A stretch of 64,000 nucleotides of DNA, from the IMG/VR virus record IMGVR_UViG_3300045988_092366; one strand, given 5' to 3'. This document shows, in pieces, positions 3,471 to 44,968 of this stretch. The DNA comes from a virus. The position numbers were made by a program, and so were the translations under genes. The notes beneath the pieces are model-generated. The model was not told the origin of the DNA, made no database searches, and saw nothing but the letters and a program-made list of their open reading frames with translations. The number at the start of each line of letters is the position of its first letter. The first letter of the stretch is position 1.

Positions 3471-3500
3471 ATTATACCATAAAAGAGTATGAAACGCAAG
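3471..3500 (-). promoter_or_regulatory. sigma70-type promoter for the 3430 operon: TTGCGT-18-TATAAT plus purine-rich leader ACCAATAGAGAAGGAG
   Basis: Reverse complement reads TTGCGTttcatactcttttatggTATAATatagatgcaataaaaccaatagagaaggagaag then ATG. Confidence 0.55.
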
Positions 3501-4214
3501 TGTATTATATAAAATTTTAGATATTTTTCTATGTATATTATATTTAAGTATGCAGCAAATGTGATTACCGTTTTTTGCCCATAAAACCATTACACCTATA
3601 AATTTTGGCCGCAAATGATTACATGTATCATGGTGCTGCTTTGGATTGCCGCGCCGTTGCTTAGAGCAACGGGCGTCAATATACTAACATTTTTGTATGT
3701 CTATTGGCGTAATGCGTATCGCTATAGTAAAATCTGTATAGTTATACCTATGAAAGTATATGGAAAATTATGCACTATTACCCATGCTCACTCTCCCCTT
3801 GCATGGAACCTATTGGATGTGCTACTTTTTCCAAGAGTATCCTATCCCCCTCTGTATGCGGTACGGTAGAGATACCGTTCGTCTCTTGTAAACTAATAAA
3901 CCAACGCAAGACCGCTTGGCTACAGAAATATTCTACTGCAAGTGAGAGTACATCCATACTTCTCACGGCAGAATAAATCTGCAACGTTTAAGACCCAGCT
4001 ATTCACCTCATTGGGGATTTTTGATTTAGGATAGTTCCTAAGCCGACTGGGAACGGCGCTATGGTTAGTTTTGTATATATTATAGCAAAAGGTTCAGCGC
4101 TTTTCAATAGCTTCGTGAAAATTTTTTAATGCCGTAATCGGAAAGTTTAAAAAGCCAATAGAAGGAATAAAGAAGAAAAGCGTTGCGTTTTATGGAATTT
4201 GAAAAATCCTCTTA

Positions 4215-4346: not shown

Positions 4347-4715
4347 TCAACAGTTTAGCCGCCGCGAGCGATAGCAGACAATGAGCGCGTTACTTGTAAG
4401 GTGATAGACGATAAATGTAACGTTGTATTTGTTGCGTTAGCTCATTGATTCTAAGGCGCTTATAAAGCGCCTTTTTATTTGCCGCTTTTGGTCGTGCCTA
4501 TGCGCGTAGGCATTTTACTAAATGGCACCTTGTAGGCTATTCTGTGGGCTTGCAAGGGTAAAAAATTATGAATTAGTGGTCACAACTTGATAGAGTTGTT
4601 TTTTCTGTGTATTCGCGTATTCACGCTCTCACGGTTTGACTTTTCGCTTGACTTGTATTACACTAAAGGATTAGACCAGAGACTTATGGAGGAATTGTGT
4701 GCGGCAAATTGATAC

Positions 4716-4760
4716 TTGCCAAACTAGGACGCTTACCGCATAATAATAGTTGTCCAAAGG
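4716..4760 (+). promoter_or_regulatory. Promoter TTGCCA-17-CATAAT followed by conserved transcript start AATAGTTGTCCAAAGG
   Basis: The same 17-mer TAATAGTTGTCCAAAGG and the same ggggacRgaWtggRgttagc pre-ATG box recur upstream of the 8257 gene. Confidence 0.5.
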
Positions 4761-4822
4761 CGAGGGTGCAAGGAGCTAACAAAGGGTTAGCCAGCCCGAA
4801 CGGGGACAGAATGGAGTTAGCA

Positions 4823-5293
4823 ATGTCTAACGCTCAGAACTACAACAAGGCTCTCAACCTCGCGGCTCAGTCCCACACCGACAAGTACAACACCACCAAG
4901 ACGCGCGTACTTGCCACGGGCGTTAAGCTTTCGGACGAGGCTTTCGATGCACTTTACCGCGCGGCAGTTGGCACTTCGGGTTTGATTGGTACCGCGCCTA
5001 CCGAGATTAGCGACGCTCAAGCGGATGCTCTGGACCTTCTTGTTGCGTTCCTTAATGCAAACCGTGATGAATGGTTCACGTTCTCCGATTTGTGCGGTCG
5101 TTCGGGCGCTATTAAGACTAGCAAGATTCGCGATTGGAACGGCAACACCTATACCACGCTTGATAATAAGAACACGCGCGACATTCTTAAAGAGTTCTTC
5201 GACCGTCTGATTAAGGCTAAGGTTTTTGAGGTTGATACGATGGTGTTTAAGTCGAACGGTACTAACGTTCTTTACGTTTATAAAGCTCGTTAG
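4823..5293 (+). CDS. Hypothetical protein in GC-rich island, behind a long conserved structured leader
   Basis: ORF 4697..5293. Start chosen at ATG 4823 by analogy with gttagcNcATG of the 8257 gene (ATG 4811 is the alternative). GC-rich codon usage. Confidence 0.55.
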   Translation: MSNAQNYNKALNLAAQSHTDKYNTTKTRVLATGVKLSDEAFDALYRAAVGTSGLIGTAPTEISDAQADALDLLVAFLNANRDEWFTFSDLCGRSGAIKTSKIRDWNGNTYTTLDNKNTRDILKEFFDRLIKAKVFEVDTMVFKSNGTNVLYVYKAR

Positions 5294-5641: not shown

Positions 5642-6124
5642 ATGAAAGCAATTGTATTAGACCTTGACGGCGTGCTTGTTGATTTTTACAACGTCAACGG
5701 TTGGTTGCCTATGTTGCAAGCGGAAAACGCCGCGCCTTACCTAATCGCTAAACCGTTAGGCGACTACAAGAAACTAAACAGTTTGCTTGCCGCTTTGCAG
5801 GGCTACGGTTATGCGGTTGAAGTTATTAGTTGGTTGGCAAAGGGCAAGACTACTAAGCAATTTGATAGCGCGGTACGCAAGAATAAACGCGCATGGTTGC
5901 GCAAGTATTACCCTGCTATTGATTTGCGAAACGTTCACGTGGTCAAGCATGGCACTAACAAGTGGCGCGTATCAAACTACAAAGGCGGCATTTTGTTTGA
6001 CGATGAAAGCGGTAACGTCCACGCGTGGCAACGTGATACGTCAAGCGGCAAAGCGGTACGTATTAAAGATGAAACTACTTTGCTAGACGCGCTAGAATCT
6101 CTTATTATCCAAGAGCTAGAATAG
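5642..6124 (+). CDS. HAD-superfamily phosphatase, 5'(3')-deoxyribonucleotidase-like
   Basis: N-terminal MKAIVLDLDGVLVDF is the DxDGV HAD motif I; 160 aa. Confidence 0.7.
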   Translation: MKAIVLDLDGVLVDFYNVNGWLPMLQAENAAPYLIAKPLGDYKKLNSLLAALQGYGYAVEVISWLAKGKTTKQFDSAVRKNKRAWLRKYYPAIDLRNVHVVKHGTNKWRVSNYKGGILFDDESGNVHAWQRDTSSGKAVRIKDETTLLDALESLIIQELE

Positions 6125-21083: not shown

Positions 21084-21449
21084 CTAATTAAGAATATAAT
21101 TAATAAAAGAACCATAAGGATAATATACCCAAAGAGCAATGGATGAAATTGAACAAAACAAAAGAACGAAAAATACTGTTGCACAAAACCCAGCGATAGC
21201 ACCAATTATAAAATAAAGACTTGAATCGTAGTCTTGATTTAAATCACCATTTCTTTTTTCAATTATGCCCTTTTTAATAAAAAATATCGTTAAAGTTAAA
21301 GTCAAAGCGAATAAACACCCAAATAGAATAGCCCCAAAGATATAATTTGCTGTTTCAAACTGTGCAAAGGCTGGAATCACTTCTTTGGTAACTGCATCAA
21401 CCGTAATACCAAGTTGGTTCGCAATCTCTTGAATAGCTTCTGCGTCCAT
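21084..21449 (-). CDS. Membrane protein, paralog of 20673..21065
   Basis: ATGA overlap with the RuvB-like stop; two TM segments. Confidence 0.5.
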   Translation of the reverse strand: MDAEAIQEIANQLGITVDAVTKEVIPAFAQFETANYIFGAILFGCLFALTLTLTIFFIKKGIIEKRNGDLNQDYDSSLYFIIGAIAGFCATVFFVLLFCSISSIALWVYYPYGSFINYILN

Positions 21450-23482
21450 TATTCACACTCTCCCATCATTGAACGGCCTAAATCGGTGATAACACGACCA
21501 CGCGGCTGCTTTTGAATATAACACTTAGATAACAGATAAGGCTCAATCTTCGTCTGTACAGTATCTTTATCCATACCAAGAGTAAGACAGATTGTATCTA
21601 CACCTACAGCACGAGTATTGCTGTTAAGGAAATTCATATAATCCATATCGTCTTGATTAAGACCAAACTTATTGATTCCCATCACATATAGAGCTTCATC
21701 AACGATTTCAGGATTGATTATACCATCATTCATAACCAAGGCAAAATCATATACACGGGCTACATAAGAATTGGCATTGCGCGGAATGCCGCGAGTAGTT
21801 GCCGCAATCTTATAGATACTCTTTTCATCAATCTTGATTTTCTTCTCTTGGCAAATCTTCTCTACAATAGATGCCATATCAGTTTTAGAATATGCGGCCA
21901 ATTTAATTTGAATAGGAAAACGATTCAAGAGTGCATCATTAAGACCGCCATAAAGATTAGTCGCGGCAATAAGAGTGAAATGCGGCAAACTCACCCTTGT
22001 CGCTACACCGTCTACTACCACGTCTGCTTCAAACTGTTCCATTGCGAAATAAAGAGACTCTTGCAGTCTTTGCGAAATGCGGTGTATCTCGTCGATGAAG
22101 AGAACGTCATTCTCTTTAAGATTAAGAAGAATCTCGTCAATTACTTTCTTGTCGTTAATCGCAGGACCAGAGAAAGCCTTGAACCCGTAGCCAAGCTCAT
22201 GTGCAATCACATTGGAAACTGTTGTATTGTGCGTTACAATAAAATCGTTAGTCAAATATAGGTGTTCATCATTATCAACATAGATACAAACCATTTCTTC
22301 TTTTTCTGGCATCTTTTCAATGTCTATAATAGAAATGTGATTATGACTAAAATTGTGTTTCTTAATGCCAATTGCTGATGCCATTAACATCTTTTTCCTA
22401 TTAAGTTTAAAAAGTTTTGGCTTTTCTTCATCGGAACAGCTAATTGTAATACTATAACAGATGCCAGTTTTGTATTTTTTTCTAGTATCGCTATAAATAC
22501 GCGGGCAATAAAAACCCAAAGAATTAGCTAAACGAATAACATCGTGGATAAGGTTAATATTAACAGAAGTAAAAGATACACTAGTTCTGTTATCTTTGGA
22601 TACCCTAGCATATCCGTCTGTGTCTAATAAACCCTGTAACAGATTAAGCCTTTGTTCAATGTCTCCATAAAAATATTCCTCTGGAATTCGTTTACTATGT
22701 GAATCGCAACATACTTGTTCTTCGCAAGTTGAAAATAGCTGCTTAGTCTGGACCGTTGTTACCATACAACCACTTGTAGCATTAACGCAAGGAGACTTTA
22801 GTTTAAAACACCAATTATAATTATTTTGAGTATACTTAAAAGGAACTGCTTTAAACTTTTCAGGAAGTAAACTTGCTACAATTTTTGGAATTTCATCATT
22901 TTCCGATGAAAGAGTGAGTTGGCTCTGCAAACAACATCCATCACCAAGAAAAGCTCCTACAATATACGGATGTACATTAAAGTTTTTATGAGTATATTCA
23001 ACGGCTTTTGATATAGGAACTTTGTACTTGTAGTCACGGCGACCGTTGCCTGTAATTCTATATATTCCATTGTCAATGATTTCTCGTAGCGTCATTGTCT
23101 TTAAATTATCTTTGGATGTACAATAACTCCAAAGATGTTCATCATTGCAATAAGTAGAACGTCCATCTTTAAAAGTAACCTTATAATTATCGAGTTTTCC
23201 TTGCGGGAAAACGCCCAAAACTTTCGTAGGCTTACCAAGCCTATCAAAAACATAATCTCCGACAGCAATATCGCCAAGACGCTTATCACCATCAGGCGTA
23301 GGAATAATTGTATCAACAGGTTGGGCTTTTCCGCATCCAGACTGGCCTGTGATAATCGTGTGCGGGAAAGACTCCTTCTTAATCTGCGCTGCCTTAATAT
23401 AGATTTGCAACATCTTTTGGACTTTGGGCTGTCCTTTCAAGTCTTCAATCTTACAAGGACGGAAACCGAACTCAGAAGCCAT
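21449..23482 (-). CDS. RuvB-like AAA+ ATPase interrupted by an intein in the Walker A loop
   Basis: N-extein FRPCKIEDLKGQPKV...IITGQSGCGK and C-extein TTVSNVIAHELGYGFKAFSGPAI...DVLFIDEIHRISQRLQESLYFAMEQFEADVVVDG correspond to RuvB GPPGLGKTTLA...DVLFIDEIHRL. Start trimmed to MASEFGF (RBS AAAGGA). Confidence 0.8.
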   Translation of the reverse strand: MASEFGFRPCKIEDLKGQPKVQKMLQIYIKAAQIKKESFPHTIITGQSGCGKAQPVDTIIPTPDGDKRLGDIAVGDYVFDRLGKPTKVLGVFPQGKLDNYKVTFKDGRSTYCNDEHLWSYCTSKDNLKTMTLREIIDNGIYRITGNGRRDYKYKVPISKAVEYTHKNFNVHPYIVGAFLGDGCCLQSQLTLSSENDEIPKIVASLLPEKFKAVPFKYTQNNYNWCFKLKSPCVNATSGCMVTTVQTKQLFSTCEEQVCCDSHSKRIPEEYFYGDIEQRLNLLQGLLDTDGYARVSKDNRTSVSFTSVNINLIHDVIRLANSLGFYCPRIYSDTRKKYKTGICYSITISCSDEEKPKLFKLNRKKMLMASAIGIKKHNFSHNHISIIDIEKMPEKEEMVCIYVDNDEHLYLTNDFIVTHNTTVSNVIAHELGYGFKAFSGPAINDKKVIDEILLNLKENDVLFIDEIHRISQRLQESLYFAMEQFEADVVVDGVATRVSLPHFTLIAATNLYGGLNDALLNRFPIQIKLAAYSKTDMASIVEKICQEKKIKIDEKSIYKIAATTRGIPRNANSYVARVYDFALVMNDGIINPEIVDEALYVMGINKFGLNQDDMDYMNFLNSNTRAVGVDTICLTLGMDKDTVQTKIEPYLLSKCYIQKQPRGRVITDLGRSMMGECE
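22226..23326 (-). mobile_element. Intein (367 aa) with LAGLIDADG homing-endonuclease domain, inserted between GK and TT of the P-loop
   Basis: Begins AQPVDTIIPTPDGD (Ala1, Hint block A-like) and ends FIVTHN immediately before Thr+1. Two LAGLIDADG-type motifs: IVGAFLGDGCC and LLQGLLDTDGY. Confidence 0.75.
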
Positions 23483-23547
23483 ATAAAATCCTTTCTGCTT
23501 CATTTCTTAAATATATTATATCATTTTATATGGCTTACTACAAGAAA

Positions 23548-29101: not shown

Positions 29102-29638
29102 TTACTCTCCAAGCTCAATCTTTTTCTGCTGGACATCGAGCCAAATGTCGTGAATATTGACAGGAGTAAGGTTATTCGTGTCAACGCCTACGTGATACGT
29201 CCAATCAGCAAGGCCTTTAGGAGCCGCATCATGGACATGACCATACAGAATGACATTGGCGCTGTCTCCACACATTTCCTCGGGACGCTCGTGAATCATA
29301 ATGAAACTAACATCGTTGTAATCAAGGCAAGACACCTTGTTTTCGATAATCCAGCCGAGCTTTTCCATTTCTGCAATGCGCTTCTTGGTATCATGATTGC
29401 CGGGAATCACATGAATCTTGCCGTTAAGACGAGAACCGTACTTAGCTACAGTCTCAAGCGGTCCCATGAAGCAATCACCAAGATGATAAACAGTATCACC
29501 AGGAGATACAACAGAGTTCCACTTTTCAACGATGTGTTCGTTCATATCTTCGACCGTATTAAAAGGACGCGACTGGTCACAATAGGTGATAATATTCTTG
29601 TGAGAAAAGTGAGTGTCGCTTACTACAAAGGTGCTCAT
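29102..29638 (-). CDS. Calcineurin-like metallophosphoesterase
   Basis: Start trimmed to MSTFVVSDTHFSH (RBS AAGGAG). Motifs VVSDTHF, YHLGDCF and IPGNHDT. Confidence 0.7.
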   Translation of the reverse strand: MSTFVVSDTHFSHKNIITYCDQSRPFNTVEDMNEHIVEKWNSVVSPGDTVYHLGDCFMGPLETVAKYGSRLNGKIHVIPGNHDTKKRIAEMEKLGWIIENKVSCLDYNDVSFIMIHERPEEMCGDSANVILYGHVHDAAPKGLADWTYHVGVDTNNLTPVNIHDIWLDVQQKKIELGE

Positions 29639-29654
29639 TGAATCTCCTTTCGAT

Positions 29655-29695
29655 TTCTTAAATATATTATAACATAATATATAGCCAATAGTCAA
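29655..29695 (-). promoter_or_regulatory. Promoter TTGACT-18-tgtTATAAT-ATATTTAAG
   Basis: Reverse complement of cttaaatatattataacataatatatagccaatagtcaa. Confidence 0.6.
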
Positions 29696-29705
29696 CAAAA
29701 AAAAT

Positions 29706-30295: not shown

Positions 30296-30398
30296 TTGGT
30301 GCCGCATCTAGGTACCGCCCCTAGCCAGTCTAAGACAGAAGATTTACAGTCTTCCCCTCGTCTTTAAAGGAATACTGCGGCAATTATAATTTAAAATT

Positions 30399-30504
30399 TA
30401 GTATGCCTTGTCTTGGGTTCGGGAGTCGGACCCGAATGCCTTGCGGCGCTATTTTTTGAGAATAGTGTGTATGCCAGTTCCACCAACCCAAGATAAGGCA
30501 TACT
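30399..30504 (-). ncRNA. 20-bp inverted repeat (19/20 match) enclosing a 66-nt loop with a T-arm-like hairpin
   Basis: agtatgccttgtcttgggtt ... aacccaagataaggcatact. Loop (minus strand) has CGGG-TCCGACT-CCCG and aaaaaatagcgccgc. Confidence 0.5.
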
Positions 30505-30513
30505 AACATGCCT

Positions 30514-30960
30514 TTAATTTGTCTGTTTCTGAATCCCAAGCTGGTCAAAAAACTCGTCTGGAATAAACTTGTCATCCAAAGGCTGATAATCTTTCCAGAT
30601 AATCAGAGGATACCAAGTCTTTGACCACTCGGTAAATTCAGCGAATTCATCATTATATCCAAAAGAAACAGCAAAACCAAACCAGCTTGGTTTGACATGC
30701 GGGAAAGTCTTTTTGATAATTCCCTCGTTGTCAACAAAATCGCCGATACGACCGCAAATAGTACAAACGTTCCTATAAGCATAAGTCCATGTGCCAGCGT
30801 ACTTATCAAAGTAATTGATAACAATGCTCTTATCGTAAGTGTGTTTATGATTGGCTTTCTTCACTGTCTTTTTCTTTTTACGAGCGGGAGCATTGGCCGC
30901 ATCGTCAGGAATATAAGCGTATTTAGTTGCCAATACTTCATCCTTATAAGGATACGACAT
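30514..30960 (-). CDS. Hypothetical protein (148 aa), CxxC present
   Basis: ORF with RBS AAAAGGAGC; the 20-bp IR hairpin lies just 3' of it. Confidence 0.5.
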   Translation of the reverse strand: MSYPYKDEVLATKYAYIPDDAANAPARKKKKTVKKANHKHTYDKSIVINYFDKYAGTWTYAYRNVCTICGRIGDFVDNEGIIKKTFPHVKPSWFGFAVSFGYNDEFAEFTEWSKTWYPLIIWKDYQPLDDKFIPDEFFDQLGIQKQTN

Positions 30961-31005
30961 TTACAAAGCTCCTTTTCTGCTTTTGGATAAATTGAGTAGC
31001 TATCT

Positions 31006-31063
31006 ACTCTGCTGGAATGGTAGGACTCGAACCTACAACAATGCTGGCTGCTTACACATCAGC
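31006..31063 (-). tRNA. 3' half of a split tRNA gene (variable region, T-arm GTAGG-TTCGAGT-CCTAC, acceptor CATTCCA)
   Basis: Acceptor 3' strand pairs 7/7 (one GU) with TGGAGTG of the 5' half at 31544-31550. Confidence 0.5.
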
Positions 31064-31483
31064 TTACCAGTTCTTTACTACTTCCTCCAATTCATAATCT
31101 TTTGCCCAAGTTACTCCCCTGCTTTGCCCATTCTTTGCAGGAAGAACACGAAGTTTTTTATCTGCTCCGCATTCATCGACAGGAATCAAGTAACATTTTT
31201 TATTGAACGAAGTAACAAAATAATCAATTTCATCTTTTGTATATTTATGATGAATTATCTTACCATCTTTACGATTACAGCTTCTTCCACTAAAACTAAA
31301 AGAAGCTCCATTGTCATTTGTATGAGAAGTTTTACTTTGAATTCGTAAAAATTTTCCTCCTGCATCAACTACAAAATCATATCTTTCACAATCTCCATAT
31401 GGAGTTAATACATTGAAACCCAATTTTAAAAAGGCTAACATAGCTTCAAATTCCGTTACGTTGCCTATTTGTTTACTATTCAT
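31064..31483 (-). CDS. PD-(D/E)XK nuclease (Hjc-like), homing-endonuclease-like, inserted inside a tRNA gene
   Basis: GNVTEFEAMLAFLKLGFNVLTPYGDCERYDFVVDAGGKFLRIQSKTSH. The D...D...QxK core is shared with the N-terminus of 38286..39035. Confidence 0.6.
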   Translation of the reverse strand: MNSKQIGNVTEFEAMLAFLKLGFNVLTPYGDCERYDFVVDAGGKFLRIQSKTSHTNDNGASFSFSGRSCNRKDGKIIHHKYTKDEIDYFVTSFNKKCYLIPVDECGADKKLRVLPAKNGQSRGVTWAKDYELEEVVKNW

Positions 31484-31511
31484 ATTTGTTTCATAAAGCT
31501 AGTAAGGTCAG

Positions 31512-31550
31512 GTAAACAGCCGCGTGCTCTACCATTGAGCTACACTCCAG
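31512..31550 (-). tRNA. 5' half of the split tRNA (acceptor TGGAGTG, D-arm GCTC-AATGGTA-GAGC, start of anticodon stem)
   Basis: Reverse complement TGGAGTGTAGCTCAATGGTAGAGCACGCGGCTGTTTACC. The ATG of the nuclease ORF follows about 25 nt later. Confidence 0.5.
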
Positions 31551-31578
31551 CAGGGTAGATAAACCACATTTTGTTCTA

Positions 31579-31647
31579 TTGGAGCGGCAAGACTCGAACT
31601 TGCGACACGTTGAGTTAACAACATTCTACCAACTGAATTACACTCCA
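31579..31647 (-). tRNA. tRNA-like gene (69 nt) with canonical acceptor, D and T arms but a truncated anticodon arm and a 12-13-bp extended acceptor helix
   Basis: TGGAGTG-TA-ATTC AGTTGGTA GAAT-[GTTGTTAACTCAACGTGTC]-GCAAG TTCGAGT CTTGC-CGCTCCA-A. Flanked by ttctattgga/tccaatagaa. Confidence 0.45.
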
Positions 31648-31877
31648 ATAGAACGAATTACTTAGATAAAAGGACGTTATGAAGATAACCGTCAGCTTCT
31701 TCAAACGTATCAAAGCTCTTGATGATTTCAAAACGAACAACAGAGCAATCAGTGTTGACACGAATCGAATAGATGCCGCAAGTCTTTTCACGGCAGATAA
31801 CGAACTTTTTCATAACTTCCTTCTCTCTCTTGGTTTATATATATTATATCATTATATAAACCAGAAGTCAAGAAAAA

Positions 31878-31978
31878 TATGCGGAAAAATTGCATTCAGA
31901 CTATAAGTGCGGCGTACCGCATCCTTAAAATAAAAATTGTCTTCAAGAAGTAACTGAATTCTCGTCACGCATATCAAA
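31878..31978 (-). ncRNA. Two-stem structured RNA element, copy E
   Basis: atgcggaaaa...gcattcagac...gaagtaactgaattc...tcacgcat. Confidence 0.45.
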
Positions 31979-32206
31979 TTACTAATTAAGAAAGAATGAC
32001 ACCCTGCTTTGCCTTGTTAATCTTGCGGCGAAGTTTGCGCATAATGCCGACATTCTCTGAGTTCTTACCCTTGCGATTAATAAGCATCTGATAACGCTGT
32101 TCCATCGTCTCGATTGACTGTGCCATACTTTCTTACCTTTCTCTTGGTTAAATATATTATATCAAATTATTCAACTATTTGTCAAATAATTTTTTATAAA
32201 CAAGGT

Positions 32207-32277
32207 GGCGAGAGGGAAGAGTCGAACTTCCAACTGTTGCATATGAAACAACTGTGATACCTTTTCACCACTCCGCA
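32207..32277 (-). tRNA. tRNA-Met/Ile(CAU)-like, probably degenerate (acceptor stem does not pair)
   Basis: D-arm GTGA-AAAGGTA-TCAC; anticodon arm GTTGT-TTCATAT-GCAAC (CAU); T-arm GGAAG-TTCGACT-CTTCC. 5' TGCGGAG versus 3' CTCTCGC mismatched. Confidence 0.35.
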
Positions 32278-32707
32278 TGTTTGTAGTTTTCACATCTGCC
32301 GAGGTTTGAAAACTACCAAAATATACCAGATTCCTCTTCCCCTAGGCGCTTCTTTTCAAGTATGCGCTGGCCCGCATTGTCTACGGCTACAGAGACGGCA
32401 TATATAAAATCTTGCAAGCAAGATAATATAATCACGTGGACGGTTTCAAACTGGGAAAACCGCCAACCCTTTAATCTATAATCCCTGCAAAAGACTATAG
32501 AAGTCGGGAGACATTTACCTTGCAGCGATAACCTCTCCCCAAGCATTGGATATAACATAATCGCTAGGTGCTATTCTCACCAATTAGACTAACCGCCGCT
32601 AACTCGGCCTGTCCGGGAGTCGAACCCGAATCTTCACCATCACGATTTGTTAACTATATTATACAAAATTACTCGGCGTTTGTCAAGTAATTTTTTAATT
32701 ATTTTGG

Positions 32708-32780
32708 CTGGTTCTGAGAGATTCGCACTCCCGTGACCACATTCAGAGTGTGGCATCCTAAGCTACTAGATGAAGAACCA
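32708..32780 (-). tRNA. tRNA-Gln(CUG) candidate (73 nt, non-canonical D-arm)
   Basis: Acceptor TGGTTCT/AGAACCA pairs 7/7; anticodon arm CCACA-CTCTGAA-TGTGG; T-arm GGGAG-TGCGAAT-CTCTC. Confidence 0.5.
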
Positions 32781-32781
32781 A

Positions 32782-32857
32782 TGGTCTGCTCAGCTTGACT
32801 TGAACAAGCAACCCCAAGTTCCCAAAACTTGAGCTCTACCAATTGCGCTATGAGCAG
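32782..32857 (-). tRNA. tRNA-Pro(UGG) with encoded CCA
   Basis: CTGCTCA-TA-GCGC AATTGGTA GAGC-T-CAAGT TTTGGGA ACTTG-GGGTT-GCTTG TTCAAGT CAAGC-TGAGCAG-A-CCA. All stems pair. Confidence 0.8.
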
Positions 32858-32975
32858 AAAATGGACAAATTTATATAGCGACTGCCCAAACCGCTAAATT
32901 AACTTGGGATAAGCACAGACGAATTCAAAGTTCGCTCTACTTATCACTTGGAGAGTGTCTAAGATTAGCACTCTG

Positions 32976-33059
32976 AGCAGGAAGTCAGATTTGAACTGAC
33001 GTGTTCGTAAAGAAGCGGGCTTACAAGACCCGTGCCATCGACCGCTAGGCGATTCCTGC
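32976..33059 (-). tRNA. Class II-type tRNA (84 nt), anticodon ambiguous (UGU or GUA)
   Basis: Acceptor GCAGGAA/TTCCTGC perfect; 3-bp D-stem GCC...GGC with GG in the loop; anticodon arm CGGGT-CTTGTAA-GCCCG; 14-nt variable arm; T-arm GTCAG-TTCAAAT-CTGAC. Confidence 0.6.
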
Positions 33060-33081
33060 TCAGAATGTTAAAAGAAAAATG

Positions 33082-33114
33082 AGCCTGCAATACTCTAGAA
33101 ATCTTGCAGGCTCT
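33082..33114 (-). terminator. Hairpin gagcctgcaa...ttgcaggctc plus T-run, between an upstream TTGACA/TATAAT promoter and the tRNA array (terminator or attenuator)
   Basis: 10-bp stem; the promoter lies at about 33188-33216 on the minus strand. Confidence 0.5.
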
Positions 33115-33233
33115 AACACCACTATTACAATATAAAAGTTGCGCAACAAAAATTATAACTTTTTGCCCAGAACTTTTATCTTGTAACTAAAGTTATTATA
33201 CCATATTGGTATAACGTCTGTCAAGAACTTTTT

Positions 33234-36932: not shown

Positions 36933-37883
36933 TTAATTTTCAAACCAGTTACGCAACTCGATTACCGAAGGGCAAGTTCCTCGACCTTGCTCGCGGCACT
37001 CTTCCACGAACTCAGGAATTGCGTCCATGAGACTGGGTTCAAATGCCAGCTTGTTCTTGATGTTCTTGATAGTCTCAATATCGCGTCCAGTCCAAACCTG
37101 CTGCAAAACTCCACGAGCCTGCTTCCAGTTCTTGTACCAAGGAGTCTTATACTTCACCATAAAACCGTCTGCATCCTCGAAGACAAAGCCCTCGATGCTA
37201 GCACGTGCGGCCCACTTGTCAATGAAGGCTTCAAACTCCTGCCAGTTAGCAATGACTTTGCTAAGAACCTTGCAATAGAATCCAAAATGTCCAGCTACAT
37301 CAATAAGTGTATAGTACCCCGCATGGCTATAGTTGAAATCATTGTACACCAAGTCCAAAAGCACAAGGTGAGGATGTGAATACTCAACGATATGCGGGTC
37401 ATGGATAGGGTCAATGCACTCGAAGACAGCAGTGCAGTCATTCTTGTGCAGATATTCTGCAAATTCCTCCTGCTGTGCAGTGGTCAACGTCTTGTCAAGA
37501 ACGTCACGGATATATCCTGCAAAATCTCCCTCATTCGTGCTCTTGGATGCGATGAACAGCTTACCGTCCTCGGTCGGGTCGGCAGAAATCATCGCAAGAA
37601 ATCCGTTAGACTTGACATATGCGCACACAGGGAACACAAGATTCTCACGCAGGCTAACCATTTCAGTCTCAGGACGCTCTCCAATGTTGAAAAATTTGTT
37701 GTACGAACGTGCAACAACCTTATTGTTAGCACAATCCACGAAAAGCCCTCGACTACGAATCGAAGCAGAATCCCATTCCTTTTTGAAAAAGCACTTGTTG
37801 GAGAAATTAAAAGACGAGATTCCATTTGCAAGATGCTTCTCGCGCACAAGCGAGCTATTACGCAGCATATCGACTTCGTTCAT
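36933..37883 (-). CDS. ATP-dependent ligase-like nucleotidyltransferase (RNA/DNA ligase superfamily, KSNG variant of motif I)
   Basis: Motif I AYVKSNGFLAM; III TAVFECID; IV EGFVFEDADG; V FMVKYKT. 316 aa. Confidence 0.55.
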   Translation of the reverse strand: MNEVDMLRNSSLVREKHLANGISSFNFSNKCFFKKEWDSASIRSRGLFVDCANNKVVARSYNKFFNIGERPETEMVSLRENLVFPVCAYVKSNGFLAMISADPTEDGKLFIASKSTNEGDFAGYIRDVLDKTLTTAQQEEFAEYLHKNDCTAVFECIDPIHDPHIVEYSHPHLVLLDLVYNDFNYSHAGYYTLIDVAGHFGFYCKVLSKVIANWQEFEAFIDKWAARASIEGFVFEDADGFMVKYKTPWYKNWKQARGVLQQVWTGRDIETIKNIKNKLAFEPSLMDAIPEFVEECREQGRGTCPSVIELRNWFEN

Positions 37884-38285: not shown

Positions 38286-39035
38286 TTATAATTTTTCCCA
38301 TTCTTCATCAGAATAAGAAAATATATCAGTCTTTTTTCTTGGCAAATTATAAACATCGCACCATTTTCGGATTGCATTGTCACTTACCTGATATTCAGCA
38401 CCAATTGATAAAAAAGACTGAGTCCTAATTTTTGATTTTAATTCATCACGAGTAATATGTAATTTTGCACTAGTACCATAGCTATCTTTCTTTTCTTTAA
38501 TTGAACATTGTTTGCATAAAATTGCTCCGTATGATACGGTTTGTCCACAATTAGCACATCGTGGCGCAGACAATTCTTTTTCTTTTTGTTCTTCATTTAC
38601 CATTCGAATAATAGATTTTGTATTTAAAATTTTATCAAACGTATAATCACTTTCATAATTAACATTTTCAAAATTGCCGTTTGAAGTTTCATTAAACCTT
38701 ATTGTTATTGAATGTACATCACAGAAAGGTACTAAAATAGGATGCGGCCTTTGAAGACAGTATATTGCAAAATAATCTACATCATCTTCATTATAAAAAG
38801 TTGTCACGGTAGAATCAGCTCTTAGAGATGTATTCTTTAATTTAACTTGATAAACGCCATTACCGCTATATTTGCTAGTAGTTTTTACTTGTATTTTGTT
38901 AAGTTTATTATTGAACTTAGCAATCATATCAATTTTGGTATTTTCTCCGTATGGAAGAAATACTTCAATTCCATATTTTAAAAATTCTGTCAGTACAACT
39001 GCTTCTCCAATATCACCAATATTTTTACCATTCAT
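38286..39035 (-). CDS. PD-(D/E)XK (Hjc-like) nuclease plus Zn ribbon plus C-terminal HTH: free-standing homing-endonuclease-like
   Basis: N-terminus GDIGEAVVLTEFLKYGIEVFLPYGENTKIDMIAKFNNKLNKIQVKTTS is paralogous to 31064..31483; then CANCGQTVSYGAILCKQC. Confidence 0.55.
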   Translation of the reverse strand: MNGKNIGDIGEAVVLTEFLKYGIEVFLPYGENTKIDMIAKFNNKLNKIQVKTTSKYSGNGVYQVKLKNTSLRADSTVTTFYNEDDVDYFAIYCLQRPHPILVPFCDVHSITIRFNETSNGNFENVNYESDYTFDKILNTKSIIRMVNEEQKEKELSAPRCANCGQTVSYGAILCKQCSIKEKKDSYGTSAKLHITRDELKSKIRTQSFLSIGAEYQVSDNAIRKWCDVYNLPRKKTDIFSYSDEEWEKL

Positions 39036-41862: not shown

Positions 41863-42435
41863 TTAACCTTTCATCCTATAGCGTCGAGAGTATTCCATCA
41901 TGCAACATGCTGCGCTTTGCGCAACATTCAATGAGCGGCAAGAGCCATATTGACGAATATAAATCATTTCATCACACTTGTCAATGATTTCTTTTGGCAG
42001 TCCATCACATTCATTTCCATATACAAATGCAGACTTCATTGGAATATCAGCATCATAAATATTCTGCGGATTATACTCTGGAATATTATCTACAGCAAAA
42101 ATAGTATATCCAAGAGGATGAAGAATCTCAAGAACTTCATCGAAATCATCAGCATGATATACAGTTTCATATCTATGAGTGCTAATTGAACCACGCCTAT
42201 CCCATTTCTTGCGGCCAACGATATAGACTTCTTTTCCAAGAAACGCATTATTCGCGCGAATACCACTTGCGATATTGATATTATAGTTGACATTCATGAA
42301 GATGGAGACAATCGGAAGTCGATTCTTCTGCAAATCTGCTTTAATCTCTTCGTCAGTCCACTGCTTGTATGCGTCAATCACATTACGCTTTGCTGTCTCA
42401 CAGAATTCAGTGCTGCAACCATATTGAGTAATCAT
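41863..42435 (-). CDS. SPOUT (TrmH/SpoU-like) RNA 2'-O-methyltransferase
   Basis: Motif 2-like FVYGNECDGL and motif 3-like RSLNVAQSAACCMMEY. Confidence 0.6.
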   Translation of the reverse strand: MITQYGCSTEFCETAKRNVIDAYKQWTDEEIKADLQKNRLPIVSIFMNVNYNINIASGIRANNAFLGKEVYIVGRKKWDRRGSISTHRYETVYHADDFDEVLEILHPLGYTIFAVDNIPEYNPQNIYDADIPMKSAFVYGNECDGLPKEIIDKCDEMIYIRQYGSCRSLNVAQSAACCMMEYSRRYRMKG

Positions 42436-44455: not shown

Positions 44456-44968
44456 CTAGATTGCTTTTAATTGGTCAATGATTGGCAAGATTTGCATATT
44501 GCTTGTGCCGATAGCGTAGTTTTGCTGCTCTGAAATAAATACAATCTTGTCAAACGGTTCATTGTCTTGTGGCGAAACTTTGCATCTATACATTTCTGCA
44601 ATTTCCTTTTCACTTAGACGATGATATTTATCACGATTCTTATTGCGCGCAACTGCTACATTTTGTGGAGTTTCAACCCAAACGCAAATAACTTCGCAGC
44701 CATTGTAATTTACATTGTTGAAAAACTTATCGCGCTCAACGCGATTGATATTGCGGTCATTCGCCACAACGTAACGATGTGATTTTAAGGCAATGTTAAC
44801 TGCGTTATAAAAGCGCTTGTCAACTGTGTCGGCTTCTTCTGAATTATACATGCGGCAATTATCTCTCTTGATTGCCATACAGTCTTCATGTGAATCTTGA
44901 ATTGCCTTTGCAAATACAGACTTACCGCTCTGCGTTACACCGCACATTAGAATTAGCGTATGCTTCAT
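44456..44968 (-). CDS. P-loop kinase (polynucleotide-kinase/dNMP-kinase-like)
   Basis: MKHTLILMCGVTQSGKSVFA is a Walker A motif. Confidence 0.55.
   Translation of the reverse strand: MKHTLILMCGVTQSGKSVFAKAIQDSHEDCMAIKRDNCRMYNSEEADTVDKRFYNAVNIALKSHRYVVANDRNINRVERDKFFNNVNYNGCEVICVWVETPQNVAVARNKNRDKYHRLSEKEIAEMYRCKVSPQDNEPFDKIVFISEQQNYAIGTSNMQILPIIDQLKAI

Follow-up and report, generated by a model that had tools for sequence, protein, structure and literature searches.

When the reading frame of a DNA nuclease lies inside a tRNA gene, the question is whether the interruption is an intron, and of what kind, or whether the tRNA has been given up to a selfish gene. This question is raised by a tRNA-Asn(GUU) gene on the minus strand of a 64,000-nucleotide (nt) stretch of viral DNA, IMG/VR record IMGVR_UViG_3300045988_092366 (the whole stretch is referred to here as the window). 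The gene is split by an insertion that consists largely of an open reading frame (ORF) for a homing endonuclease. Two classes of intron, group I and group II, are recognized in bacteria and their phages, and each is a ribozyme; the splicing of tRNA introns by proteins is regarded as a mark of archaea and eukaryotes. The feature described here is a homing-endonuclease mobile element in a tRNA gene, an intragenic variant with an RNA structure of its own, in which the ends of the insertion pair with the anticodon loop to form a rod that covariation across a large family shows to be under selection. Excision of the insertion from the RNA by proteins is a serious but tentative proposal, and it is weighed below against the reading that the tRNA is simply sacrificed.

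The split tRNA-Asn gene and its nuclease

By default, with no intron option, ARAGORN misses the split gene; with introns allowed, it reports a single tRNA at 31011..31549 with an intervening sequence of about 460 nt. Exon 1 (31515..31549, minus strand) comprises nt 1-36, that is, the 5′ strand of the acceptor stem, the D arm, the 5′ strand of the anticodon stem and C32 U33 G34 U35 U36. It is defined by its own sequence and by its identity to the 5′ part of two uninterrupted alleles from related contigs, L167 and L169. Exon 2 (31012..31049, minus strand) runs from A37 to the discriminator G73 and carries next to the junction what we call the scar: a G at 31048 (A38G) and an extra A at 31045, which forms a bulge in the anticodon stem. 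The insertion between nt 36 and 37 occupies 31050..31514 (465 nt, minus strand), as defined by alignment with 14 intron-less alleles; ARAGORN run with its intron option (-i) agrees, and the related loci described below have the same junction. On the minus strand, with a slash at each junction, the exon 1 side reads CTGC TGGAGTG TA GCTC AATGGTA GAGC A CGCGG CTGTT / TACCTGACCTTACTAGCTTTATGAAACAAAT ATG, and the exon 2 side reads TGG TAA GCTGATGTGTAAGC / AG CC A GCA TTGTT GTAGG TTCGAGT CCTAC CATTCCA G CAG. The D arm (GCTC/GAGC) and the T arm (GTAGG TTCGAGT CCTAC) are intact.

A first-pass annotation, made by a model from the DNA letters alone, had recognized two tRNA halves that pair at the acceptor stem, and all seven acceptor pairs do form (six Watson-Crick and one G-U). 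It had also described a 480-bp insertion made up almost entirely of a nuclease ORF. The split and the filling of the insertion by the ORF (420 nt) stand, and the size is corrected to 465 nt. The distances given for the ORF are likewise revised: it begins 31 nt after exon 1 rather than about 25, and ends 14 nt before exon 2 rather than about 30. The non-coding part of the insertion is thus 45 nt only (31 + 14). The 31-nt 5′ untranslated part (31484..31514, minus strand) holds the n strands of the three structural elements discussed below, namely helix H, the CUGAC loop and helix 2.

The arrangement is not due to chance, because the split recurs in more than 100 independent loci and because the 14 intron-less alleles define the junction. 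Several other assignments were considered and set aside. The anticodons that ARAGORN calls ("Stop tta" in the window and "Asp gtc" in relatives) were rejected because the program places the intron arbitrarily; the intron-less alleles are Asn GUU with the junction at 36/37. A reading of the window copy as tRNA-Val(UAC) in a shifted register requires a distorted D arm, and the homologous alleles are Asn. A match to YrlA (RF02553) scores 38.4 bits against a gathering threshold of 69 and spans the T arm of an upstream tRNA-like element and the D arm of exon 1; it arises because the two adjacent tRNA-like genes have the same acceptor sequence.

The ORF (31064..31483, minus strand) encodes a 139-aa PD-(D/E)XK homing endonuclease of the I-Ssp6803I family. 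The protein matches Pfam PF11645 (PDDEXK_5) with 109.4 bits (cutoff 26.1; E = 1.9e-31) over residues 1-132 and profile positions 1-137 of 138, and it matches the sequence of the I-Ssp6803I crystal structure 2OST (E = 8.8e-9). It has 526 homologues in a large protein collection. Among 11 diverse members, the columns P-Y-G-D-C-E-R-Y-D and Q-x-K are invariant and align with G-D...Y-D and Q-V-K of 2OST, and from this alignment we infer catalytic roles for the conserved residues. This comparison with a known homing endonuclease bears out the earlier assignment of the ORF to the PD-(D/E)XK nucleases, and the proposed paralogy with the N-terminus of a second gene in the window (38286..39035, minus strand) also holds (25% identity, E = 1e-15, both matching PF11645). 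That second gene is free-standing, has no adjacent tRNA gene and encodes a 249-aa nuclease with a Cys-rich and helix-turn-helix-like C-terminal extension. In the wider family of such cassettes as well, the start codon lies in an A-rich segment with no obvious Shine-Dalgarno sequence by inspection.

The protein is thus an ordinary member of the I-Ssp6803I family, but its RNA context is not the known one. The first-pass annotation had drawn the analogy with I-Ssp6803I, whose gene lies in a group I intron of a cyanobacterial tRNA-fMet gene; the analogy is sound for the protein and fails for the RNA. The readings proposed included a ribozyme intron, of group I (as in the cyanobacterial case) or group II, with a core that overlaps the ORF, and classical group I introns do occur in tRNA-Leu genes of these phages. 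A permissive Rfam scan of 30300-33200, including RF00028, returned no group I or group II intron at E<=10, and none was found over the whole window at the Rfam gathering threshold. Inside the nuclease insertion of 10 related loci, no intron model matched at E<=1, in a scan that detected the classical group I intron in tRNA-Leu(UAA) of L001 as a positive control (47.4 bits). As the first-pass annotation had remarked, there is no obvious room for a group I core: the 45 non-coding nt compare with a ribozyme of about 200 nt in the cyanobacterial I-Ssp6803I intron, which is 655 nt long with a 150-codon ORF (PMC1995217). Within the ORF, RNAalifold recovered no conserved pairing in 38 full-length inserts. 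Synonymous entropy is flat along 46 unique ORFs (relative 0.46-0.74), as expected of unconstrained sites; its one dip falls over roughly the final 12 codons, the pairing partners of the 5′ leader. The boundaries also differ from those of known classes. The last base of the insertion is C in Asn and Ile types, A in the Lys type and G only in Pro-type members; U36 pairs with A(-3) at the 3′ end of the insertion rather than with a 5′ guide; and the ends read UACCUG...UAAGC, not the GUGYG...AY of group II introns. We therefore regard the insertion as almost certainly neither a group I nor a group II intron, and a ribozyme core hidden in the ORF as exceedingly improbable.

A cassette family with an exon-pairing RNA rod

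The more than 100 related loci that share the split-tRNA architecture come mostly from gut and rumen phages, and their host genes are tRNA-Asn, tRNA-Ile, tRNA-Lys, tRNA-Pro and suppressor tRNAs. The surrounding DNA was obtained from 30-40 viral contigs, from 80 metagenome contigs of human gut and rumen, and from 8 contigs of metagenome-assembled genomes (MAGs); of these eight, five are placed in Bacillota lineages, and the rest are placed in Bacteroidales or Acidobacteriaceae or are unresolved. In nearly all recovered loci, the ORF lies inside the split tRNA. The cassette is found only as a unit, consisting of a short 5′ leader, an I-Ssp6803I-type ORF and a 3′ tail of 0-15 nt, and it is always inserted at 36/37. 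The design recurs, in tRNA-Lys and tRNA-Pro, among more distant nuclease clades that are 40-45% identical and in some cases carry an additional domain. No description of the arrangement was found in the searchable literature, where "enigmatic" introns in Lak megaphage tRNAs have been noted with no mechanism (bioRxiv 10.1101/356790), and the family is apparently undescribed.

Once the junctions had been re-derived across the family from the pairing rules given below, the exons were joined in silico at 36/37, and ARAGORN recognized a tRNA in 70 of 74 unique cases: 43 Asn(GUU), 18 Ile(GAU), 2 Lys(UUU), 2 UUA suppressor-like and a few others. The split isoacceptor is usually the sole copy in its tRNA set, which is expected with or without splicing. 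Apparent breaks in the ORFs of related loci are in-frame TAG codons (L023, L029, L040 and L069) or a TGA at a conserved Trp (L064), and these ORFs are not pseudogenes, as the phages that carry them appear to be stop-codon-recoded. The host tRNA has a UUA anticodon in L027, L092 and L101, and a cassette in such a suppressor-like tRNA may gate the recoding tRNA.

The structure common to these loci begins with helix H, which joins the anticodon loop to both ends of the insertion. In the window, its 5′ strand (31512..31518, minus strand) consists of U33 G34 U35 U36 and intron positions +1..+3 (UAC), and its 3′ strand (31049..31055, minus strand) of intron positions -6..-1 (GUAAGC) and A37. U33 pairs with A37, the anticodon pairs with the last three intron bases, and +1..+3(4) pair with -4..-6(7), so that the two junctions lie 3 bp apart in a continuous helix from 33:37 to +3:-6 with no bulges. 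Both covariation and the minimum-free-energy (MFE) fold point to this helix. Across 66 unique sequences, standard pairs are formed from 33:37 to +2:-5 in essentially all and at +3:-6 in 59, with two to six pair types at the variable positions, and compensatory changes support both the anticodon stem and helix H in the RNAalifold consensus. The 3′ end of the insertion tracks the anticodon of its host, reading AGC/A in Asn, AUC/A in Ile, AAA/A in Lys and CUG/G in Pro. An Asn-type cassette that resides in tRNA-Ile (L093) has AUC, and a few Ile hosts keep AGC with an A-G mismatch. The U35-G(-2) wobble is kept in 44 of the 48 cases with U at nt 35.

Beyond helix H, Asn/Lys-type members have an internal loop in which (C/U)UGAC stands opposite CUGAUG(U). 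It occurs in at least 42 of the 46 unique sequences, and its distance from the junctions hardly varies. In the window, the first strand is a box-D-like CUGAC at 31507..31511 (minus strand; 43 of the 46 unique Asn/Lys-type members have NUGA(C/U) here, its G being +6 or +7). The second is a box-C-like CUGAUGU at 31056..31062 (minus strand; YU-GAUG directly after helix 2 in 38 of 45 Asn/Lys-type members as parsed by script). The loop sequence is compatible with the C-G, U-U and tandem sheared G-A/A-G pairs of box C/D K-turns (n strand C-U-G-A, b strand G-A-U-G); a canonical K-turn was rejected, as the bulge is 2+1 (CU / C) in nearly all members and not 3+0. The main Ile-type subfamily has a small A/AC loop in place of the CUGA/CUGAUG loop.

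The rod continues into helix 2, a duplex of 5-16 bp between the 5′ leader and the end of the ORF (its final codons and its stop codon), of which there are 31 distinct covarying versions. In the window, its 5′ strand (31493..31506, minus strand) is CUUAC followed by an imperfect extension, all within the 5′ untranslated region, and its 3′ strand (31063..31074, minus strand) is GUAAG overlapping the UAA stop together with upstream codons, where the synonymous dip is found. Helix 2 closes the whole ORF in the MFE fold. For the 544-nt window precursor, this predicted fold comprises the acceptor, D and T arms and a continuous rod that closes off the ORF (z = -3.7).

Mobility, proposed excision and the fate of the tRNA

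The history of the insertion can be read from uninterrupted alleles. A scan of IMG/VR with the 5′ half of the tRNA recovered the 14 contigs with an uninterrupted tRNA-Asn, which differ among themselves by minor allelic variants. Thirteen are close relatives with the same flanking genes, and one (L160) has different flanks. These alleles read GAGC A CGCGG CTGTTAA CCGCG CTGTT GTAGG, that is, tRNA-Asn(GUU). In an alignment with five of them, the joined exons of the window correspond to allele L167 with two changes 3′ of the junction, A38G and an extra A between nt 40 and 41, and this alignment places the insertion exactly between U36 and A37. An independent case is provided by Enterococcus phage EFP01 (KY549443; Herelleviridae, Schiekvirus), which carries a 59%-identical ORF within tRNA-Asn, with the cassette at about 105.24-105.78 kb. 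About 30 sequenced relatives of EFP01, including EFDG1 and phiSHEF16, have an intact annotated tRNA-Asn at this site, and comparison with EFDG1 and phiSHEF16 reveals a clean CTGTT/AACC insertion with 100% identical exons and no target duplication. The prevalence of the cassette is low and polymorphic, with 1 in about 66 Schiekvirus records and with 4 loci with versus 14 without it in the window clade. A Mantel test on cassettes and tRNA bodies gives r = 0.46, yet ORFs that are only 1-3% apart in nt sequence are found in tRNA bodies that have diverged by 19-25%. The clean presence/absence polymorphisms show the invasion of a tRNA gene by a homing endonuclease, which figured in one of the readings of the first-pass annotation, and we are highly confident that this is a homing-endonuclease cassette of the family described above, inserted at 36/37.

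The scar is common to all four cassette-bearing relatives, counting the window (the others are L031, L124 and L125), on three exon backgrounds, and it occurs in none of the 14 intron-less alleles. A search of IMG/VR for an intron-less allele with the scar returned chance 15-mer matches only. Across the junction, the joined exons of the window lineage would read GCGGCTGTT / AGCCAGCATTG; the scarred joined-exon string, GCGGCTGTTAGCCAGCATTGTTGTAGG, is absent from all DNA alleles examined. The first-pass annotation had proposed that intron-less homologues differing around the junction would point to a disrupted pseudogene. Such differences are present on the 3′ side of the window copy (A38G and the 1-nt insertion). 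When the window exons are joined exactly, no 5-bp stem with a 7-nt loop results: A38G closes the C32-A38 mismatch into a C32:G38 pair, and the extra A leaves the anticodon stem bulged. ARAGORN accepts this joined copy only by distorting the D arm or shifting the register. Even a precisely joined window product would probably misfold, with a 5-nt loop, and the window tRNA is therefore probably impaired; a working tRNA-Asn is unlikely here whether or not splicing takes place. For the window itself, it is likely that the element is effectively a selfish insertion that has crippled tRNA-Asn.

Some further variation touches the same sites. L031 (SKEO01000025.1), a 145-kb metagenome contig, encodes an ORF protein that is 100% identical to that of the window, and its exon 1 is two bases off (GAGC-CT-GCGG versus GAGC-AC-GCGG in the window). 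tRNA-Asn alleles with C33 (loop CCGTTAA) occur both without an intron, in L158, L161 and L164, which have a different anticodon stem, and with a cassette, in L003 and L039; pressure from the endonuclease may have shaped them as variants of its target site. In EFP01, the last ~26 nt of the ORF (L020 3395-3425) resemble the D-arm region of its own tRNA, with 20 of 26 positions identical in a MAFFT alignment, a likeness that may be due to chance or may be a trace of how the 3′ end of this subfamily originated.

Taken as a whole, the explanation that we favour, on balance, runs as follows. As the known behaviour of its family suggests, the nuclease would cut the palindromic anticodon-stem-loop DNA of intron-less tRNA alleles, and repair from cassette-bearing genomes would copy the cassette together with a few adjacent exon bases; such co-copied bases would explain how the scar travels with the cassette on three exon backgrounds. 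Both this scar and the presence/absence polymorphisms lend indirect support to cleavage of the intron-less gene near the insertion site. The transcript, as the covariation shows, is a normal tRNA body with its anticodon stem running into a long rod and with the ORF as a 420-nt loop at the end of the rod. This rod would serve as the substrate for protein-dependent excision, the junctions facing each other across helix H with a 3-bp stagger. A structure-specific nuclease would cut both junctions while the tRNA body holds the exon halves, and an RNA ligase would reseal them, following the logic of archaeal introns in a bacterial virus. We count in favour of excision that helix H tracks the anticodon, that the wobble between the junctions and the loop beside them are conserved, that the joined exons are canonical, and that the design is old and broadly distributed. 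A non-canonical intron was also among the earlier readings, and the covarying exon-intron helix favours it; that the members of the family are in fact excised and religated by proteins at the RNA level is a possibility that we rate slightly short of probable. The same caution applies to the claim that they represent a new, ribozyme-free class of introns in bacterial viruses, which we put forward tentatively.

Several observations weigh against excision. We know of no bacterial enzyme that excises such an insert, and no excising enzyme or splicing machinery was identified in this analysis; among the 20 window proteins scanned against Pfam, none is EndA-like. RNase III was rejected as the excising enzyme by a geometric argument, as its 2-nt stagger would lead to loops of 6 or 8 nt and not 7. 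The tRNA-damaging scar persists and spreads in the window lineage, the anticodon of L063 is mutated to GCU, and the cassette-bearing L003 and L039 have C33. Exon bodies are usually more diverged than the cassette ORFs they contain, and given near-identical ORFs in diverged exons, the intactness of the exons may mean no more than that healthy genes were invaded recently. ORF-less derivatives are what stable neutral introns usually leave behind, and no ORF-less or deleted derivative of the cassette was found in IMG/VR by pattern scans with spacers of 5-35 and 36-66 nt or with the 3′ junction motif alone. As for the sealing step, a phage-encoded Rnl1 ligase is probably not universal among carriers of the cassette. 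A tblastn search with the Rnl1 ligase discussed below matched 158 phage records, and Enterococcus is not among the ten commonest genera named although 65 Enterococcus records share the tRNA region of EFP01; EFP01 is therefore probably without a phage-encoded Rnl1 ligase.

The window does encode proteins of the RNA-repair type, scattered around the tRNA cluster on the minus strand. An Rnl1-type (T4 Rnl1) RNA ligase (36933..37883; PF09511, E = 7.5e-41) is a candidate sealing enzyme. The Pfam scan further identified a P-loop kinase (44456..44968; AAA_33/KTI12-like) that is possibly a polynucleotide kinase, a calcineurin-type metallophosphoesterase (29102..29698) that is possibly an RNA end-healing phosphatase, and a SpoU-family RNA methylase (41863..42435). 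A ligase of the window type (87-98% identity) is present in 12 of the 13 close cassette-free relatives. Co-occurrence of cassette and Rnl1 across IMG/VR was rejected as support, since the close relatives of the ligase are the cassette-free relatives of the window phage. Excision at the DNA level, from a cruciform cut by an Hjc-like enzyme, was likewise dismissed: the spacer is 420 bp, G-T and G-A "pairs" would be involved, and the anticodon would be lost.

The principal rival to this explanation, to which we assign a somewhat lower probability than to excision, holds that the RNA is never spliced and that the cassette is a purely selfish intragenic endonuclease gene for which the tRNA is sacrificed, at a cost that a phage can afford. 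The tRNA body and rod would then give the endonuclease mRNA a natural "tRNA scaffold"; the message would be transcribed from strong tRNA promoters and presented as the loop of an extended anticodon arm, while RNase P and 3′-end enzymes would trim the chimera so that its ends are protected in the acceptor stem. The predicted fold of the precursor, a tRNA with an elongated anticodon arm, fits this picture, as do the scar carried and spread in the window lineage, the lack of ORF-less derivatives in the pattern scans, the failure to identify splicing machinery, and the probable absence of the ligase from EFP01. The ORFs are moreover all intact, their apparent breaks being recoded TAG or TGA codons, and the cassette has the low, polymorphic prevalence of free-standing homing genes. 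PF11645 genes elsewhere are indeed free-standing and close to tRNA genes: one lies 24 nt after tRNA-Asn in Salmonella phage PM10, one 3 nt after tRNA-Asn in the haloarchaeal virus HSTV-4, one overlaps the start of tRNA-Ile in Pectobacterium phage My1, and one lies between tRNA-Arg and tRNA-Val in a cyanophage. What a scaffold does not need, however, is for the last three intron bases to follow the anticodon at each change of tRNA, for a G-U wobble to persist between the junctions when A-U is one transition away, or for a loop of conserved sequence to be held at a fixed distance from the junctions. Nor does sacrifice of the tRNA require that 70 of 74 joined exons be canonical tRNAs.

Two further readings keep excision and differ in the catalyst. 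The RNA itself might be a new small self-cleaving and self-ligating RNA, with the CUGAC/CUGAUG loop and helix H as a catalytic centre at both junctions. The loop is strongly conserved between covarying helices at 4-8 nt from the junctions, it bears a loose likeness to the CUGAUGA strand of the hammerhead (L070 and L072 read exactly CUGAUGA), and a G-U wobble lies between the junctions. The Ile-type subfamily, however, has the same architecture and junction with an A/AC loop in place of CUGAC/CUGAUG, and therefore no catalytic core is common to all members. No ribozyme family matched over the junctions at E<=1, and only about 45 nt are available. The hammerhead, the hairpin and other small ribozymes were rejected on the absence, by inspection, of a third helix and a GAAA strand and on the Ile-type loop, and we consider a self-splicing RNA quite improbable. 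The second reading, which is unlikely but less so, is that the encoded PD-(D/E)XK endonuclease is itself the splicing nuclease. Helix H and the anticodon stem would then reproduce, as double-stranded RNA, the centre and left half of the enzyme's DNA target, with RNA junctions after nt 36 and opposite nt 33/34 in a 3-nt 3′ stagger. The idea derives in part from the cut positions of I-Ssp6803I, which is reported (Bonocora and Shub 2001) to cut DNA on both sides of the anticodon triplet and to leave 3-nt 3′ overhangs. Hydrolytic cuts would leave a 3′-OH and a 5′-phosphate that an Rnl1-type ligase could seal directly in the anticodon loop, and a splicing role for the nuclease would account for the constant presence of the ORF in the cassette.

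The outcome matters under either of the two leading readings. If the RNA is excised, the family would represent a new splicing route in the bacterial world and a living model for the linkage of endonuclease genes, tRNA introns and RNA repair ligases. If it is not, selfish nuclease genes can ride inside tRNA scaffolds, and homing can be the reason why a tRNA gene is missing from a phage annotation. Standard tRNA finders miss split genes, and phage tRNA repertoires are consequently under-counted, including the suppressor tRNAs of recoded phages.

Known systems and neighbouring elements

By analogy, the closest functional counterparts of the cassette are the archaeal protein-spliced introns that carry homing-endonuclease ORFs, such as the rRNA introns with LAGLIDADG genes. 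In both, no ribozyme is present and the ORF nearly fills the intron. As in archaeal and eukaryal tRNA introns, the insertion lies in the anticodon loop, and its ends pair with exon bases that include the anticodon, which brings the junctions together; a route by endonuclease and ligase would be logical for the cassette as well. The two differ in that the cassette has no bulge-helix-bulge (two 3-nt bulges flanking a 4-bp helix) but a continuous helix with the junctions 3 bp apart, lies at 36/37 rather than 37/38, and encodes a nuclease of a different family. Its hosts are bacterial phages, among them an Enterococcus phage and contigs binned with Bacillota and other bacterial MAGs, and to our knowledge there is no splicing endonuclease in bacteria.

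The group I intron of cyanobacterial tRNA-fMet, like PF11645 group I introns in tRNA-Arg, shares with the cassette the nuclease family, a target in the anticodon region and the placement of the ORF inside a tRNA gene, and the mobility of the cassette and of the tRNA-fMet intron is seen as presence/absence polymorphism. The cyanobacterial tRNA-fMet intron is reported at position 33/34 (PMC13011429); the cassette, 465 nt with 45 non-coding, lies at 36/37 and has no group I core, terminal G or P1-type guide. Free-standing homing genes in phage tRNA clusters, such as SegB of T4 and the PF11645 genes of Kuttervirus, My1, Sf-FR1 and HSTV-4, are likewise selfish and tRNA-associated. The PF11645 genes among them belong to the same protein family as the cassette ORF. 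Free-standing homing genes spread, as the cassette probably does, by cleavage and repair with co-conversion of flanks. These genes sit between other genes and leave the tRNA intact, whereas the cassette interrupts the anticodon loop itself and carries its own covarying RNA structure, paired with the exons. Bacterial rRNA intervening sequences, which are removed by RNase III with no religation, resemble the cassette as ribozyme-free extended helices that emerge from a conserved RNA and would be processed by host enzymes. They are, however, short, non-coding and not mobilized by a nuclease, and the 2-nt stagger of RNase III is unlike the junction geometry of the cassette. Moreover, fragmented rRNA still works, whereas a tRNA nicked in its anticodon loop cannot decode.

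Immediately upstream of the split gene lies a tRNA-like element (31579..31647, minus strand; Rfam tRNA, 44.5 bits), which we treat as context only; its anticodon arm is degenerate and its anticodon loop has 6 nt. All relatives have this element, whether or not they carry the cassette. The first-pass annotation had described it as a complete and nearly identical tRNA-like gene with an extended acceptor helix. Its tRNA-like nature and the extended acceptor helix are borne out, and it shares the 5′ acceptor strand and the T loop with the split gene; the two are not near-identical, as the D and T stems differ and the anticodon arm of the element is degenerate. Its T stem covaries among relatives (GCAAG/CTTGC versus GCAGG/CCTGT). 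Leader and trailer lengthen its acceptor helix by 6 bp (TTCTAT/ATAGAA), and the flanks of tRNA-Asn lengthen theirs by 4 bp (CTGC/GCAG).

A second selfish element in the window is a LAGLIDADG intein (Hint, Hom_end, LAGLIDADG_3) within a gene for a RuvB-like AAA+ ATPase (21449..23503, minus strand). Among the related loci, the classical group I intron in tRNA-Leu(UAA) of L001 occupies 4858-5062, and structured RNAs abound in such tRNA islands. In L017, the split tRNA is followed immediately on its 3′ side by an HDV-F-prausnitzii-like ribozyme (3473-3540; 38.4 bits, below threshold), L005 contains a twister-P1-like match (6052-6110; 40 bits), and L028 contains a ROOL RNA (4611-5235; 341 bits). 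Finally, short ORF-less intervening sequences of 31-77 nt, unrelated in sequence to the cassette termini, occur in or near the anticodon loop of other phage tRNA genes, in L014 (4065-4195 and 4880-5025), L028 (4095-4270 and 2530-2660) and L017 (4360-4475).

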